DNA from: a virus
Taxonomy: Duplodnaviria; Caudoviricetes
DNA length: 64,000 bases
IMG/VR virus record: IMGVR_UViG_3300042914_002678
Strand: one strand, 5' to 3'
Position numbers and translations under genes: made by a program
Part shown: in pieces, positions 6,956 to 13,488 of the stretch
How the letters are laid out: each line of letters starts with the position of its first letter
How positions within the stretch are numbered: position 1 is the first letter of the stretch
The notes under the pieces: generated by a model
What the model saw: only the letters and a program-made list of their open reading frames with translations
The model's database searches: none
What the model was told of the DNA's origin: nothing

Positions 6956-7798
6956 ATGCCAATCCCGTCAATTAATGCTCTCACAATGCTAAGTGGTAGA
7001 GAGCAATTTGGCAACGTTGCGAGAACTAATCAATTTCAAGTTTTTATTGAAAATGGATGGGGAACTAGTGGTTCTACAACACCTTTTTTAGAACACCTAA
7101 AAAATACCACTTTGTATTATGGAATTGATTGGACTGCAACATTTAAGAAAAAACTTTCTTTATTGTGTTTTGACGCAAATCTTCCTGCCTCTACTTATGC
7201 AACTGCAGAAGTAAAAGATAATTTTATGGGAGTTGCTCAAGAATTTGCACATACTAGAATTAATACCGATATTGATTTTAGTTTTTATGTTGATAGTAAC
7301 TATTATGTTTTAACATTTTTTGAGGCATGGATGGATTATGTTTCTGGAGGAAATAGCAAAAAGGATCCATCAACTGGAGATCCTGTTCCAGATGAACCAA
7401 GTTTATACGATAATAATATTAATCCTTATTATAGAAGATTTAATTATCCAAAATTTTATAAAAATCAATCTGGAGTTTATATTAAAAAGTTTGAAAATAA
7501 CTGGGATGTTGAAGGAACCACAAATATAACATATCAATTAATTAATGCATTTCCAAAATCTATTGCCTCTATTCCTGTTACTTATGGTGAAGCAGAAGTT
7601 ATGAAAGTAACGGTAACAATGAATTATGATCGTTATAGATTGTATAGAGAAATTGCAGGACCGCCAGTTGTTGGTGGTGCTCTTAAAAATTCTGATGGAA
7701 CTTGGACAGTTCAACTTATCATTGCTGGAGATGTTATTACTAAAACAGTAAGCAATACGGTATATCAGACTAAATATGCTTTACCACCAGTACCATAA
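6956..7798 (+). CDS. Tail tube-like / baseplate-tube initiator protein (gp54/gp19 fold)
   Basis: ARTNQFQV, LLCFDANLP, FSFYVD...FFEAWMDY, LINAFPKSI, VTVTMNYDRY. Confidence 0.7.
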   Translation: MPIPSINALTMLSGREQFGNVARTNQFQVFIENGWGTSGSTTPFLEHLKNTTLYYGIDWTATFKKKLSLLCFDANLPASTYATAEVKDNFMGVAQEFAHTRINTDIDFSFYVDSNYYVLTFFEAWMDYVSGGNSKKDPSTGDPVPDEPSLYDNNINPYYRRFNYPKFYKNQSGVYIKKFENNWDVEGTTNITYQLINAFPKSIASIPVTYGEAEVMKVTVTMNYDRYRLYREIAGPPVVGGALKNSDGTWTVQLIIAGDVITKTVSNTVYQTKYALPPVP

Positions 7799-7827
7799 AT
7801 AATTGCAACTGATTTGTGTAGGAAATT

Positions 7828-8550
7828 ATGCCTTTACCAAAAATTACAACACCAACTTATGAGTTGGAAATTCCCTCTACTGGAAAAAAGATTAAATATC
7901 GTCCTTTTTTGGTAAGAGAAGAAAAAATTCTAATCATGGCATTAGAATCTGAAGATATGAAATCAATCACAGATTCTATTGTCCAGATACTAAGCGAATG
8001 TATTCAAACAAAAGGTATAAGTATATCAGAACTTGCAACTTTTGATATTGAATACATTTTCTTAAACGTTAGAGCAAAATCAATTGGTGAAAAAATAGAA
8101 GTTAATGTAACCTGTCCAGACGATGGAGAAACACAAGTATCTACTGAAATTGATTTAGATACGATTAAAGTTCACAAAGAAAAAAATCATTCTAATATCA
8201 TTAAGATAGACGATGAATTGTCAATGAAGATGAAGTATCCTTCATTGGAACAATTTGTTGAAAATAATTTTGAATTTCAAGAATCTAATATTGATGTAGA
8301 TAAATCTTTGAATATGATTGTTTCTTGCATTGATATGGTATATACACCAGAGGAGTGTTGGTCGGCTTCTGATTGTACCAAGAAAGAATTGGTAGAATTT
8401 GTAGAGCAAATGAATACCAAACAGTTTAAAGAAATTGAATCTTTCTTTACAACTATGCCAAAGTTAACTCATAAGGTAGTAATTAAAAATCCCAAAACTA
8501 AAAAGGACAATGAAATCGTATTGGAAGGGTTAGCAAGTTTTTTCAGCTAA
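7828..8550 (+). CDS. 26: Baseplate hub assembly protein gp26
   Basis: MPLPKITTPTYELEIPSTGKKIKYRPFLVREEKIL, LATFDIEYIFLNVRAKSIGE, ends EGLASFFS. Confidence 0.9.
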   Translation: MPLPKITTPTYELEIPSTGKKIKYRPFLVREEKILIMALESEDMKSITDSIVQILSECIQTKGISISELATFDIEYIFLNVRAKSIGEKIEVNVTCPDDGETQVSTEIDLDTIKVHKEKNHSNIIKIDDELSMKMKYPSLEQFVENNFEFQESNIDVDKSLNMIVSCIDMVYTPEECWSASDCTKKELVEFVEQMNTKQFKEIESFFTTMPKLTHKVVIKNPKTKKDNEIVLEGLASFFS

Positions 8551-8720
8551 TGATGTCTCATACTAGTCTTGAGGCATATTATAGAATTAATTTTTCCTTG
8601 ATGCAGCATCATAAATACTCTTTGACAGAACTTGATAACATGATTCCTTGGGAAAGAGAAGTTTATGTATCTCTCCTTCAACAATATATTGAAGAAGAAA
8701 ACGCAAAGCAGAGGCAGTAA
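8550..8720 (+). CDS. 51: gp51-like baseplate hub assembly protein (56 aa, below the ORF-track cutoff)
   Basis: Translated by hand: MMSHTSLEAYYRINFSLMQHHKYSLTELDNMIPWEREVYVSLLQQYIEEENAKQRQ. Confidence 0.85.
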   Translation: MMSHTSLEAYYRINFSLMQHHKYSLTELDNMIPWEREVYVSLLQQYIEEENAKQRQ

Positions 8721-10994
8721 GTGGCAATAGGAAAACAACCATTTTTTAAAGCACCATCAGTACCTAAAATGGGGAAGAAGACAGTTTCTTCTTCTGTGTT
8801 TTCCAACGTTTCTCAACAAGTAGAGCAGAAATTTAAAATATCACCTTTTAGATTTCTTCAACCAAAGCAACAAAATATTGTTGCTCAAACTGAGTTATTG
8901 CAAACTAAAGTAGAACAATCTACAAAAAATGATGGAATTATAAATTCTACTTTAACAATAACAAATAGAGTTTTAGAAGGAGTACAAAAACAACTTTTCT
9001 CATATTTTTCATCAATAGAAGCAGAAAAGAAACAAGCACTCGCTGCGTCAAAAGCTTCCGCTAAAAAAAGAAGAATAGGAGCAAAAGAACAGAGTATTGA
9101 AGAACCAAATAAAATTAATCAAATAATTGGAAAAGCTTTTAGTAAAGTAACTGCACCAGCAAGATCTATATTTAGTAAAATACTTGAATTTTTTAGTATT
9201 CTTCTTACTGGAATACTCGTTAATAGTGCTTGGAAATGGTTACAAGATCCAAAAAATCGTGAAAAAGTAGGAAAATTTTTCAGTTTTATTGCAGAGCACT
9301 GGAGATGGATTGTTAGAGTATTAGTTCTTGGTAAATTATTAGGATTTTTATATAAAGTTTATCGAGTTGTAAGTGGTCTTAAAAAAGGTGTTGATTTATT
9401 AAGGAAAGGTTGGGATCTTCTTAATAAAAGTAAAAAAACTAGTGGTCCTGGTGGCGGTGGAGGAGGTGATCCTTGTAGACCATTACTACAGTGCATGGGA
9501 AATCCTGCTTTCTCTGCTAGATTTGTTGCTGCTTCAATCGCAGCATTTATTGCTAATCAGCAATTAACAAATCATATTAAAAATGTAGCAAAAGGATTAC
9601 TTGTTCCAGCACCTCCAACTCCAATACCTGCTGTTCCGCCAGTAGTACCACCTACAACTCAAAGACCAACATTACAACAACAATATCGTCAATCAAGGCA
9701 AGGTGCTCCTGCTGGTGGTTATTCTGCAACAAACGTGCAAGCGGCCCAGCAGGCAGCAGGATCAACTCCCGCACAAAGTTCTCAGCAACTATCAAAAACA
9801 TGGGATCAAGTTAGATCATTATCAAATGATCCGGAAATTCAAGTAATTCTAAAAACATCTGCTTTATTAACTTTTCTAGACGGACCAGTTCCATTTGGTG
9901 ACCCCCTTGCCGTAGGAAATCTATTAAGGATATTACCAAAATTAATTCAGGTAATGACAAGACGCGGCATGGCAGTTGCTGCGTCAAAAGGTGGAACAAT
10001 ACCAAAAGAAGCACCAAAGAAAAAGTGTGATACTTGTTCATTATTACCAACTTTCTCCCAAGGAGGAACAGTGGGTGGTCCAGGATCTGGAAATGTAGAT
10101 AGTGTTCCAACTATGCTTGCTCCTGGTGAAGAGGTTATTCGTACTTCTGCTGCAATGTTATTCAGACCACTATTGAAAGATATTAATGATAACGCTGGTA
10201 GAATGTGGCAGGCATTTCAGTCTGCTATTGACCTACAAGAAAGAAATAATTTTTCTCAACTTTCAACTACTGAAAAATTTAATAAATTACTAGATGCTTT
10301 TAATAAAGAATTAAAAGGTTTAATTCAAAAAGAAAAAGTTAAAGAATTAAAAAACAATTCAAGTATTTTTGGTCCAGGAAAAACTGGTAATATTCCAGCA
10401 CAAGAAGGAACTGGAAAGGAAGGACCATCTGATATTCCGCCAGGAGATTCTAGATTAAACGAATTAATTGAACCAGTAAGTAAAGATTCCCCTTTACCTT
10501 CACCAACTACTTCTCCATCAACTCCTTCTCCTTCTTCTTCACCTTCTCCTTCCCCAACCAATACTCAACCTACAGGAGAATCCAGACAATCACAAGAACC
10601 TTCTACAAAACCAACACCAAGAATTCCTACAGTTTTCCAACCAACCCCTCCACAAACACCATTAGAACCAGTAAAACCTCAGCCACTTCAAGTTATACCT
10701 TATAAATCACAGGAACAATCTTTTATAAATGTTGATCAAACTGTAAATAAATTTGTTACTGCAAAATCAAAGCAAATATCTCCAGAAACTTTTAAAAAAC
10801 CAGTTAAGAAAACTAATATTTTACCATTCCAAATGCCACCAATTAATTTGGCAGGGAATGTACAAAATAATATGAAAGGTTCTATGCCAGATCCTTCTAG
10901 TGGTTCTGCAACAGACGTTCCTTCAATATCTTCCTTTGATCCTAACAATTTTTATGTATCTTGGACTCCATATGAATACGGTATGATAACTTAA
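8721..10994 (+). CDS. Large tail protein, tape-measure-like
   Basis: Helical N-half with hydrophobic segment; FSQGGTVGGPGSGNVDSVPTMLAPGEEV motif typical of tape-measure C-terminal regions; Pro/Ser-rich tail; GTG start. Confidence 0.55.
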   Translation: MAIGKQPFFKAPSVPKMGKKTVSSSVFSNVSQQVEQKFKISPFRFLQPKQQNIVAQTELLQTKVEQSTKNDGIINSTLTITNRVLEGVQKQLFSYFSSIEAEKKQALAASKASAKKRRIGAKEQSIEEPNKINQIIGKAFSKVTAPARSIFSKILEFFSILLTGILVNSAWKWLQDPKNREKVGKFFSFIAEHWRWIVRVLVLGKLLGFLYKVYRVVSGLKKGVDLLRKGWDLLNKSKKTSGPGGGGGGDPCRPLLQCMGNPAFSARFVAASIAAFIANQQLTNHIKNVAKGLLVPAPPTPIPAVPPVVPPTTQRPTLQQQYRQSRQGAPAGGYSATNVQAAQQAAGSTPAQSSQQLSKTWDQVRSLSNDPEIQVILKTSALLTFLDGPVPFGDPLAVGNLLRILPKLIQVMTRRGMAVAASKGGTIPKEAPKKKCDTCSLLPTFSQGGTVGGPGSGNVDSVPTMLAPGEEVIRTSAAMLFRPLLKDINDNAGRMWQAFQSAIDLQERNNFSQLSTTEKFNKLLDAFNKELKGLIQKEKVKELKNNSSIFGPGKTGNIPAQEGTGKEGPSDIPPGDSRLNELIEPVSKDSPLPSPTTSPSTPSPSSSPSPSPTNTQPTGESRQSQEPSTKPTPRIPTVFQPTPPQTPLEPVKPQPLQVIPYKSQEQSFINVDQTVNKFVTAKSKQISPETFKKPVKKTNILPFQMPPINLAGNVQNNMKGSMPDPSSGSATDVPSISSFDPNNFYVSWTPYEYGMIT

Positions 10995-10995
10995 T

Positions 10996-13488
10996 ATGGA
11001 CTTAAAATCAGTTAAAAAACTAAAATTAAACGTTACTAATATTCGAAGTACTTTATTCTCTTATAATAAGAGTTTAAAGAAACTTAGATTAGATCAATCT
11101 TCTTTTGCAAGAAATGAATTAATAAAACAAAAAAGAGCAGAAAAAGAGCAAAACATAGAAAAAAAACCGTCAAGATTATCAACAGCAATTGAATTTGCAA
11201 AATCAAGATTACTTAGCGCACCTATTAGTATTTTTGATAAAATTAAAGAATTTTTTGGTGTTGTTTTAATAGGATTGTTAATTAGCAATCTTCCAAGAAT
11301 TATTAAAGGATTGCAGAAGTTTTTTGGTGATAATCCATGGATTATAACTGGAATAAAAGAAACGATTAATAATGTTGGAATTGGATTATCTAAACTTATT
11401 GAAGTTGTTCAAATGATAGCAGAACCAACATATAAATTTGTGGCAAGAAATAGAAACGAAATTGAAGGATTAATTAATAATATTGATTCTCTTCTTACTA
11501 ATATTGAAAATGGATTAATAGGTCTAGTTGGGAATGCCATTATGGGACCTCCACCTCCAACTGTAAATAGTCCTAATTATTCTAGTTTTGTTGCTGGTGG
11601 AGGAAAAGCATCTGTTAAACAAGGAAGATCAGTTTCTCAAGTTATTAAACAAGGACAGCAGAATATTTCTAGGTTTAATTCTGGTCCAAGAGCACCAACT
11701 CCTGCACCTTCTTTACCATCACCTGTAGCTCCACCTGCACTACCAATTCAGTCTTTTGCAAAAGGAGGAACAGTTCAACCAGTTTCTTCAAATGTAAAAT
11801 CACGAGGAAAAGTTTCTTCTCAAACTAAAAAATCACCATTCAGTAAACCTGGAGGAACACCAAGTGGGAGAAAGGCAATAAAATCCACAGAATCTTTTGA
11901 AAAATTTAAATCAAATACTGTAAATAAATTAACTGACATAAAAGTTCAAAAAGATAATAATAATCTTTTTGAAGGTTTGATTGAAAAATTTAGACAATTA
12001 AAATCATTAAAAGGAGATAAGGATACAAAAGGTGGTGGAGGTGGCGGCGGCGGTGGTGGTCCTAGTGGCGGAGATTATCAGGGTGAAGTAAGTGTTTCAA
12101 GTGATAGTCCAGATTTTTGGTTACTATCTACCGTTGCTTTATTTGAAAGATCAAGTCCACAAGGAGCTGCTGATGTTGCACAAGCAACATATAATAGAGT
12201 TGCCGCACCTGGTGATCCTTGGAAAACTGGTGGTAGTATAAGAACTGCTCTTTTAGATCCTGGTCAATATACTCCCGTGAGCAATTATGGTGGACCATCT
12301 GCTTGGGGAAAAATAGTTGATAAAAAATCTGCGGTGGAGTTTGTTGAAAAAAATGGGAAAAATAAAAAACAGTTAGAAACAGTATCTTCTGCTTTATTGG
12401 ATTCTAGTAGACAATCTTCTGCAAGAACATTTGTTGGACCAAGAGACAGTTTTAGAGCAACAACAAGCGAAAATATAAAGTATGATCAATTAGCAAATGA
12501 CACTGAAGTTAAAAGAGATGGTCATATTTTTGGATTTGAGCCTGGTGGAGCGCAAATTGAAAAGTTTAGACAAGGAAAATTACAACCAGCTGTTGTTAAC
12601 AAACAAGTCAGAGGAACTGTAACACCAACTGCACCACCACCAAAGCAAAAGGGTGATATAATATCAAAAGATAAAACTGTTGTTGTCGAAGGTGAGTTTA
12701 GATTAAGACCAGATGCTGCTGCTGCATATAAGAGAATGAAAGCAGATGCTAAAAAAGAAGGTGTAAATATTAGTTTAGAGTCTGCTTGGAGAGATAGTAG
12801 TGTCCAAGCATATCTTTATGATTTATTCATAAGAGGATTGGGAAATCTGGCAGCTCCTCCTGGTTCATCCGATCATGAAAGAGGAATTGCTATTGATCTT
12901 AGAGATGGAATTCCTTGGGCACAAAAAAATTGTCTTAAATATGGTTGGTATAATTCTGGAATGAATTTTTCACAAAAAGAACCTTGGCATTTTGATTATC
13001 GTGGAGGAGGAATAACACAACCACAGCAACAAAAACCAAAAATAGTATCAACAGTTAAACAACAAGAATTAGATAAGTTAAAAACAGTAATTCAGTCTAA
13101 ACCTGGAAGTAAAAAATCAGTAAATATAGATGGGGTTGGAACTTACATACGAGGAACAAATGTATTCGGAATGCCAGAAGACAAATATTTTGATGATAGT
13201 GGAAAACCAATAACAAAGGATGAGTTTTATAATAGACTTGAGAAAGCAAAGAAAAATAGCAATTTAATTTCTAGTTCTTCTGTTCCATTTGATGTAAAAC
13301 AACTTGAAAGAAATAATTTGCAAATGGAAGAGGAAGATGGATCTTCTAATATTTTGATTGCTCAGCAACCAATTTATCTTCCTGGACAACCAATACCAAT
13401 GCCATATCCAGTTGTTCAAAAAACTATATCTTCTTCAAATACAGTATCATATAATCCAGAATCTTTAGTAGCAAGGGGTTTAGTATAA
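10996..13488 (+). CDS. Tape-measure-like tail protein with putative cell-wall hydrolase and M15B (VanY-like) peptidase domains
   Basis: N-terminal architecture like the preceding gene; SAWR, SDHERGIAID and EPWH M15B motifs; central ADVAQATYNRV segment. Confidence 0.75.
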   Translation: MDLKSVKKLKLNVTNIRSTLFSYNKSLKKLRLDQSSFARNELIKQKRAEKEQNIEKKPSRLSTAIEFAKSRLLSAPISIFDKIKEFFGVVLIGLLISNLPRIIKGLQKFFGDNPWIITGIKETINNVGIGLSKLIEVVQMIAEPTYKFVARNRNEIEGLINNIDSLLTNIENGLIGLVGNAIMGPPPPTVNSPNYSSFVAGGGKASVKQGRSVSQVIKQGQQNISRFNSGPRAPTPAPSLPSPVAPPALPIQSFAKGGTVQPVSSNVKSRGKVSSQTKKSPFSKPGGTPSGRKAIKSTESFEKFKSNTVNKLTDIKVQKDNNNLFEGLIEKFRQLKSLKGDKDTKGGGGGGGGGGPSGGDYQGEVSVSSDSPDFWLLSTVALFERSSPQGAADVAQATYNRVAAPGDPWKTGGSIRTALLDPGQYTPVSNYGGPSAWGKIVDKKSAVEFVEKNGKNKKQLETVSSALLDSSRQSSARTFVGPRDSFRATTSENIKYDQLANDTEVKRDGHIFGFEPGGAQIEKFRQGKLQPAVVNKQVRGTVTPTAPPPKQKGDIISKDKTVVVEGEFRLRPDAAAAYKRMKADAKKEGVNISLESAWRDSSVQAYLYDLFIRGLGNLAAPPGSSDHERGIAIDLRDGIPWAQKNCLKYGWYNSGMNFSQKEPWHFDYRGGGITQPQQQKPKIVSTVKQQELDKLKTVIQSKPGSKKSVNIDGVGTYIRGTNVFGMPEDKYFDDSGKPITKDEFYNRLEKAKKNSNLISSSSVPFDVKQLERNNLQMEEEDGSSNILIAQQPIYLPGQPIPMPYPVVQKTISSSNTVSYNPESLVARGLV

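Follow-up and report, generated by a model that had tools for sequence, protein, structure and literature searches.

The gp26-like gene of a T4-like myovirus and the small gp51-like open reading frame (ORF) that follows it are very probably joined by a programmed -1 ribosomal frameshift on the heptamer T_TTT_TTC, as judged from sequence comparison across related phages. The phage is present in lake-water metagenomes, and among named phages it is closest to marine and freshwater phages of the cyanophage type (Kyanoviridae); the window that we analysed is a 64,000-nucleotide stretch of its DNA. On our reading, the gp26-like gene and the gp51-like ORF would form one recoded gene. Most ribosomes would reach the gp26 stop and release a 240-aa short form, while a fraction would slip back one base at positions 8538–8544, where two tRNA-Phe would re-pair from UUU-UUC to UUU-UUU. 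The slip, whose occurrence and efficiency are predictions here, would probably be aided by an upstream GGAAGGG and a downstream hairpin, and slipped ribosomes would read 58 further codons to complete a 297-aa long form. The short form would correspond to T4 gp26 and the long form to T4 gp51.

Gene order and frameshift signal in the window

All genes of the locus lie on the forward strand. Directly 5′ of the gp26-like gene, at the position of a gp54-type tube initiator, is a tail-tube-like gene (6956–7798) that matches PF23849 (Phage_TTP_2, E = 5.9e-18) and phrog_45 (‘tail tube’, E = 6e-31); the gene that Aeromonas phage CC2 has at this position is annotated as gp54 ‘tail tube’, and that of Vibrio phage ValKK3 as ‘tail tube’. 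The gp26-like gene itself (7828–8550, with its TAA stop at 8548–8550) encodes the 240-aa product of the 0 frame, which matches PF12322 and phrog_150. It is followed by the -1 frame extension (8544–8720; 58 codons after the shift), which includes an annotatable 56-aa gp51-like ORF and would be the ‘T’ part of a G/GT-type pair. Immediately 3′ of the extension begins a gene of 757 aa (8721–10994) that is probably a tape measure, judging from weak PHROG matches to tape measure proteins and from its architecture: its N-terminal region is hydrophobic and helical, and is paralogous to that of the next gene. That second tape-measure-like gene (10996–13488, 830 aa) carries a VanY/M15 peptidase domain (PF02557 VanY, E = 5.8e-13) and matches phrog_16823, ‘tail length tape measure protein’ (E = 1.4e-13). 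The window therefore runs from a tube-like gene through gp26/51 to two tape-measure-like genes, and the place of gp26/51 between them is the classical position of a G/GT chaperone gene.

The gp26 ORF ends in AGT TTT TTC AGC TAA, which places the heptamer T_TTT_TTC at 8538–8544 in the X_XXY_YYZ register of the gp26 frame. The gp51-like ORF (8550–8720, 56 codons) lies in the -1 frame and overlaps the gp26 stop as TAATG. From position 8514 the -1 frame is free of stops through the heptamer and on to 8720, and the predicted shifted product is 297 aa long, with the junction ...LASFFQLMMSH.... An SD-like element, GGAAGGG (8523–8529), is a candidate 5′ stimulator 8 nt upstream of the heptamer. The candidate 3′ stimulator is a hairpin (8553–8577) that starts 8 nt downstream of the heptamer, in which the arms ATGTCTCA (8553–8560) and TGAGGCAT (8570–8577) form eight pairs, one of them G-U, around a 9-nt loop. 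The folding energy of the hairpin segment is -10.0 kcal/mol, with a modest z of about -1.9. The sequence-only reading of this DNA had reported the heptamer, the SD-like element, the hairpin, the -1 ORF and a fusion of about 297 aa, and all of them proved to lie at the coordinates it gave.

How unusual is such a site? In-frame X_XXY_YYZ heptamers are common in the AT-rich window, with 135 in the 17,958 codons of ORFs of at least 150 aa. Only two of the 135 are of the T_TTT_TTY type, and in a scan of the window the gp26 site alone combines a distance of four codons or fewer to the stop with a -1 extension of at least 50 codons. The run of six T residues is not an assembly error, because contigs of four independent metagenome runs span 8526–8553 with zero indels. 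Taken by itself, the window sequence is weak, suggestive evidence for frameshifting; its significance comes from conservation.

Conservation of the junction among relatives

We compared 171 loci that carry a gp26 homologue with a readable end. The set includes 79 IMG/VR relatives (74–94% amino-acid identity), 80 cyanophage-like loci (55–92% identity to the S-CAM9 query used for their retrieval) and isolates: Prochlorococcus phage P-SSM2, Synechococcus phage S-CAM9, Methylophilales phage Melnitz, Caulobacter phage Cr30, Stenotrophomonas phage Mendera, Aeromonas phage CC2 and Vibrio phage ValKK3, together with close relatives. The most distant isolates share 24–35% identity. Scans for related loci with the Vibrio and Stenotrophomonas phage queries added only four loci.

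An in-frame T_TTT_TTY stands near the gp26 stop in 170 of the 171 loci (168 with TTTTTTC, 2 with TTTTTTT), and in 169 it lies exactly one codon 5′ of that stop. Every one of the 170 heptamer loci also has a gp51-like domain of 57–68 codons in the -1 frame, with no stop in between. The sole exception is an IMG/VR copy of the Mendera locus (L092), 99.6% identical to it, that reads T5 in place of T6, most simply a homopolymer error or a mutant. The -1 phase is retained even where the two ORFs do not overlap, as in P-SSM2, in S-CAM9 and in the majority of close IMG/VR relatives. The sequence-only reading had proposed aligning homologous junctions for T_TTT_TT(C/T), for the -1 phase and for synonymous-site constraint; heptamer, phase and an open -1 frame recur together in 170 of 171 loci.

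Synonymous positions bear out the same proposal. In the cyanophage-like group, which supplies 123 distinct junctions, the third positions of NNT TTT TTC are frozen, with 0 bits of entropy at all three codons against 1.2–1.8 bits at most of the 14 preceding codons. The first heptamer codon varies among Ser, Asn, Asp and Ala, yet always ends in T, and the second Phe codon is TTC in 123 of 123 junctions. Since the amino acid of the first codon changes while its third position is fixed, the constraint acts on the nucleotides and not on Phe-Phe alone. Phe-Phe is itself a conserved amino-acid motif and accounts for part of the T-richness of the site.

The flanking elements were examined in the same 123 junctions. 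At the Glu codon within the SD-like element, 14 nt upstream, GAG outnumbers GAA by 110 to 13, and GAG together with the next Gly codon gives the family consensus GGAGG. Two other Glu columns nearby prefer GAA (69:15 and 64:20). This codon bias points to a putative stimulatory role for the SD-like element. In the window the codon is the weaker GAA, but a variant of the window phage in one metagenome has A8526G, which produces GAG.

The consensus stem has 10 bp and begins 6 nt 3′ of the heptamer, with stems of 10–11 bp in the relatives. Because RNAalifold at default settings predicted no consensus structure for the 123-sequence alignment, we tested the stem by explicit pair counts. The cells of the consensus stem are paired in 82% of cases, against 26–44% with slid partners, and the mean minimum free energy of the junctions is -11.7 kcal/mol, against -5.0 kcal/mol for shuffles. 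Exchanges of GU with UG and of UA with AU show covariation in the stem; one of the covarying exchanges couples a synonymous change of Ala GCU to GCA with a Glu-to-Val replacement on the opposite arm. In 40 maximally diverse sequences the stem is 71.5% paired, a value reached by 0 of 500 shuffles, and their covariation score is 0.156 versus 0.112, with 1 of 500 shuffles as high.

Beyond this group the stem is less regular. At the Cr30 junction there is a separate hairpin (z = -3.2), and at the ValKK3 junction a weaker one (z = -1.6); folding of the Melnitz and CC2 junctions gave no hairpin worth naming. By this comparison the heptamer is universal and the stimulators are lineage-specific. The three-part signal of the sequence-only reading thus stands in the window with two adjustments: its SD-like element is present but weaker than the family GGAGG, and its hairpin, present here, is absent or weak in some lineages. 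[quoted passage not shown]

T4 genes 26 and 51 and rival accounts of the junction

T4 provides a natural comparison. The window gp26 matches PF12322 (T4_baseplate) with 240.4 bits against a cut-off of 24.5, over profile positions 2–218 of 219, and matches phrog_150 with E = 2.6e-77. T4 gp51 (249 aa) consists of PF12322 over residues 1–201 and a C-terminal extension, and it also matches phrog_634. On phrog_150, T4 gp51 covers positions 13–280 of 282, and T4 gp26 (208 aa) ends at 235. The extension predicted in the window falls in just this interval: it matches phrog_150 positions 237–278, the C-terminal part that is present in T4 gp51 and missing from T4 gp26, and it matches phrog_634, ‘baseplate hub assembly catalyst’, with E = 7.8e-28. 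The predicted fusion aligns with T4 gp51 without a gap across the junction, at ..ASFFQLMMSHTSLEAYYRIN.. (E = 3e-10). By homology, T4 has the long form as gp51, encoded by a single ORF, and the short form as gp26.

T4 genes 26 and 51 lie on opposite strands, are divergently transcribed and have no slippery site. The heptamer is likewise missing from the end of gene 26 in all six phages examined that have a separate full-length gene 51 (T4, RB69, Acinetobacter phage Ac42, Aeromonas phage avDM1, Cronobacter phage GAP161 and Escherichia phage Makalu). Gene 26 of T4 and of RB69 retains Phe-Phe, in the codons TTC TTT. Among the sequences compared, presence of the heptamer tracks precisely the loci in which a frameshift would be required, and loci with no such requirement lack it. 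The frameshift signal proposed for the window thus recurs in the relatives, at 170 of 171 loci, and is missing from T4 itself, which has separate genes.

The most serious alternative is that no frameshift takes place. The gp26-like protein and a 56-aa peptide would then be separate products, the small ORF being translated by termination-reinitiation at TAATG and the T run being kept for Phe-Phe or as a U-rich translation enhancer. Start codons speak partly for this account. The window ORF has its own ATG, in fact two consecutive ones, that overlaps the stop as TAATG, and 115 of 127 distinct junctions (91%) have an ATG where the small ORF begins. Compact phage operons often contain TAATG and ATGA overlaps, which always place the second gene in the -1 frame, and GenBank records annotate the two ORFs apart.

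The other 12 of the 127 junctions, however, have no ATG in the four codons around the usual start, with ATT or CTN at the start position, and these start-less lineages retain an intact -1 domain. Melnitz and CC2 lack ATG, GTG and TTG alike in the conserved N-terminal stretch of their gp51 domains; the Melnitz ‘gp51’ in GenBank begins at an internal Met, and gp51 of CC2 is unannotated. With no start codon in these lineages, the full domain could be made only by reading in from gp26. In the window, too, no SD is in reach of the ATG, the GGAAGGG ending 20 nt upstream of it.

Separate translation also leaves the behaviour of the nucleotides unaccounted for. The -1 phase is held without overlap in P-SSM2, S-CAM9 and most close IMG/VR relatives; a T always fills the third position of the codon before Phe-Phe, and the invariant TTC follows; the heptamer is lost where gene 51 is separate, T4 keeping its Phe-Phe in non-slippery codons; and in T4 the only equivalent of the small ORF is found at the C-terminal end of a full-length protein of the gp26 type. 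We therefore regard two fully separate products as improbable. Translation of the 56-aa ORF from its own ATG is possible as an addition, and may coexist with frameshifting.

A second alternative, which we hold to be very unlikely, accepts the long form and attributes it to slippage of RNA polymerase on the T run, with one extra U in the mRNA, in place of ribosomal slippage. The site is a homopolymer, and with T8 in Melnitz and T7 in Cr30 it comes nearer to known slipping lengths; against this, 168 of the 170 sites are exactly T6 followed by C, and T6 is short for efficient polymerase slippage. The X_XXY_YYZ register, an SD-like element at 8–9 nt and a hairpin at 6–8 nt are features of ribosomal frameshift sites, and register is irrelevant to a polymerase, though the Phe-Phe codons fix the register anyway. 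UUUUUUU is avoided in E. coli genes, possibly on account of such slippage (PMC4066793), which lends the polymerase account some plausibility.

Finally, the idea that a homopolymer indel has split a single gp51-like ORF, as a sequencing artefact or in a decaying gene, has error-prone homopolymers and the T5 of the Mendera-like IMG/VR copy in its favour, but is scarcely credible when T6 recurs in four independent metagenome runs and at 170 of 171 loci from many studies, isolates among them, and when a pseudogene would not hold both frames under purifying selection at such depth.

Relation to known tail assembly chaperones

Programmed -1 frameshifting would give the gp26-like gene the two products expected of a tail assembly chaperone gene, and we asked what structure could say of its identity. 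The AlphaFold model of the window gp26 has a pLDDT of 86.7 and a pTM of 0.81. Exhaustive structural alignment of model residues 1–96 gave three leading matches, all with Z below 8 and so in the range of chance matches: 3fgx_B (Z = 7.7), the HK97 tail assembly chaperone 2ob9_B (Z = 7.4, rmsd 3.8, 85 residues aligned) and YqbN of a B. subtilis prophage, 3klu_A (Z = 7.2), which we take to belong to the XkdN-like tail chaperone family. The fourth match comes from a Vibrio PICI-like element and is to an ORF of unknown function (Z = 5.0), and the remaining matches score 4.5 or less. Foldseek found nothing in the PDB for the gp26 model at E ≤ 0.001, a profile built from 25 gp26 homologues matched no PDB sequence at E ≤ 10, permissive Pfam scans of 25 homologues found no tail-chaperone family, and searches of BFVD and the AlphaFold DB recovered gp26-family proteins only. 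The modelled fold is thus supportive of a link between the gp26 N-terminal domain and tail assembly chaperones, and falls short of proof.

The GenBank record of Acinetobacter phage Berthold names gp51 ‘tape measure protein assembly chaperone’. T4 gp51 is needed for assembly and is absent from the final particle; it is listed with T4 gp26 among the hub assembly chaperones, the membership of gp26 in the hub being disputed (PMC3004832). The sequence-only reading had seen in gp26 and gp51 a candidate G/GT-type chaperone pair, and it gains support from the -1 signal, its conservation and the position of the gene, with a modelled N-terminal domain that resembles chaperones.

We propose that the pair plays in the T4 superfamily the part that the G/GT chaperones play in lambda, an analogy drawn from gene position, the modelled N-terminal fold and the frameshift itself. 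The part shared by both forms would coat the tape-measure-like protein or proteins, by analogy with lambda (PMC5009743). The extension would tether the coated complex to the hub or to the tube-fold protein, and both forms would depart before the virion is complete. Chaperoning of the tape-measure-like proteins and of the hub is a prediction of this scheme.

More broadly, we lean towards the view that the -1 frameshift is the ancestral G/GT-type system of the whole T4 superfamily, that is, of cyanophages, Schizotequatroviruses, Cr30-, Mendera- and CC2-like phages and others. In T4 and the phages closest to it, a gene duplication would have taken its place, gene 26 preserving the short form and gene 51 the long one. 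The T4 exception would then be removed, and gp51, the T4 hub ‘catalyst’ that has long lacked an explanation, would be a chaperone of the tape measure (gp29) whose extension recruits hub or tube proteins.

Frameshifting of this kind has a long history. Long-tailed phages make lambda gpG and gpGT, or their equivalents, through a conserved -1 frameshift of the tail assembly chaperone genes (Levin, Hendrix & Casjens 1993; Xu, Hendrix & Duda 2004, 2013, 2014, as cited in PMC5009743). A 2016 review describes the G-T frameshift as conserved among long-tailed phages ‘except T4’ (PMC5009743). Because T4 encodes the pair as the separate genes 26 and 51, its being quoted as the exception would be explained. 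A literature search conducted mostly outside subscription journals returned no description of a gp26/gp51 frameshift, and the two ORFs are not joined in any GenBank record examined (the P-SSM2, S-CAM9, Melnitz, Cr30, Mendera, CC2 and ValKK3 set). The kind of system is thus well known; what would be new, if the frameshift is real, is the case of the T4 superfamily, with the T4 exception explained and a testable role for gp26 and gp51.

Several consequences would follow from a real frameshift. The T4 superfamily would be no exception, T4 proper having only swapped recoding for two genes, and it would be possible to test gp26 and gp51 as the two forms, short and long, of a chaperone of the tape measure or hub. 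Hundreds of public T4-like genomes, those of abundant marine and freshwater cyanophages included, would carry an unannotated recoded gene whose ‘gp51’ is now misread as a free peptide of 50–60 aa, as a truncation from an internal Met (Melnitz) or as absent (CC2). Recoding on one side and duplication on the other would also form a natural pair for studying the need for a fixed ratio of short to long form.

Set against lambda G/GT, the window gene is alike in lying between a tube-type gene and one or more tape-measure genes, in an arrangement conserved despite strong sequence divergence, and in having a T4 counterpart, gp51, that is a non-virion assembly factor (PMC3004832). It differs in family, being a PF12322 protein with no sequence link to known chaperone families, and in size, with about 145 residues beyond a chaperone-like domain of about 95. 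The heptamer is U_UUU_UUC here and G_GGA_AAG in lambda, most members of the family retain an ATG at the start of the extension, and T4 genetics implicate the baseplate hub rather than polymerisation of the tube. A tentative likeness to the HK97 and YqbN chaperones lies in the model of the gp26 N-terminal domain.

With T4 gp26 and gp51 the window pair shares PF12322, and its predicted short and long forms would match gp26 and gp51 respectively, colinear across the junction; where T4 has two divergent genes, one gene and a predicted frameshift would here supply both. With E. coli dnaX and the IS911/IS3-type elements it shares the order of an SD-like element, a heptamer and a stem-loop 6–8 nt downstream, and it departs from them in a heptamer that is U-rich instead of A_AAA_AAG, in an imperfect SD-like element and in a short stem of 8 bp.

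Sequence variation at the proposed shift site

Two sequence differences fall on the elements of the proposed -1 frameshift site. The contig of one metagenome run (X9), otherwise near-identical to the window, carries A8526G within the SD-like element. This substitution is synonymous (GAA to GAG) and converts GGAAGGG to a GGAGG-type element, the family consensus. The second lies in the slippery run: the Mendera-like IMG/VR genome L092 (L092:1338-1380) is 99.6% identical to L091 but has five Ts where L091 has six, which shifts downstream reading to the third frame. The five-T run is probably a homopolymer sequencing error, or else possibly a defective variant.

Public records annotate the gp51 part inconsistently. 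In Melnitz (L084 2194-2393), gp51 is annotated from an internal Met, cutting off ~18 conserved residues, whereas in CC2 (L087 2200-2372) the 58-codon extension has no annotation.

Surroundings of the gp26-gp51 locus

Upstream, ATAAATA is found at window 7797-7804, ~25 nt 5' of the gp26 start, with AGGAAA between it and the gp26 ATG. Judged by eye only, ATAAATA resembles the T4-type late promoter (TATAAATA).

Downstream of gp51 lie two large tape-measure-like genes, the first at window 8721-10994 and the second directly following at 10996-13488; such a tandem pair is unusual. The N-terminal ~250 residues of their products are paralogous (25% identity, E 7e-10), and each product contains hydrophobic helices as well as a poly-Gly run; a VanY/M15 peptidase domain is confined to the second. 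A terminator-like hairpin with a 10-bp stem, followed by a T-rich tail, occupies window 8771-8794, ~50 nt into the 757-aa ORF provided that this ORF starts at GTG 8721. An ATG at 8769, in frame with the 757-aa ORF, directly precedes the stem and may be the gene's actual start; the hairpin might act as a transcription attenuator downstream of the chaperone genes.

Gene 26 and gene 51 as separate genes

Where gene 26 is separate (T4 gp26 and relatives; L081, L173-L177), its product extends 3-4 residues beyond the Phe-Phe position, ending ..FFELL, ..FLKIL or ..FLKVVG. These residues are similar to those with which the -1 frame part of the long form opens (..FKLLV..), as would fit an origin of gene 26 by truncation of a copied fused gene. 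In the Pseudotevenvirus GAP161, a Cronobacter phage (L176 310-2888), gp54, the long form of gp51, a short gp26 of 185 aa and gp25 follow one another in this order on a single strand, which may represent an intermediate, post-duplication arrangement. In T4, by contrast, genes 26 and 51 are divergent, whereas GAP161 has both on one strand.
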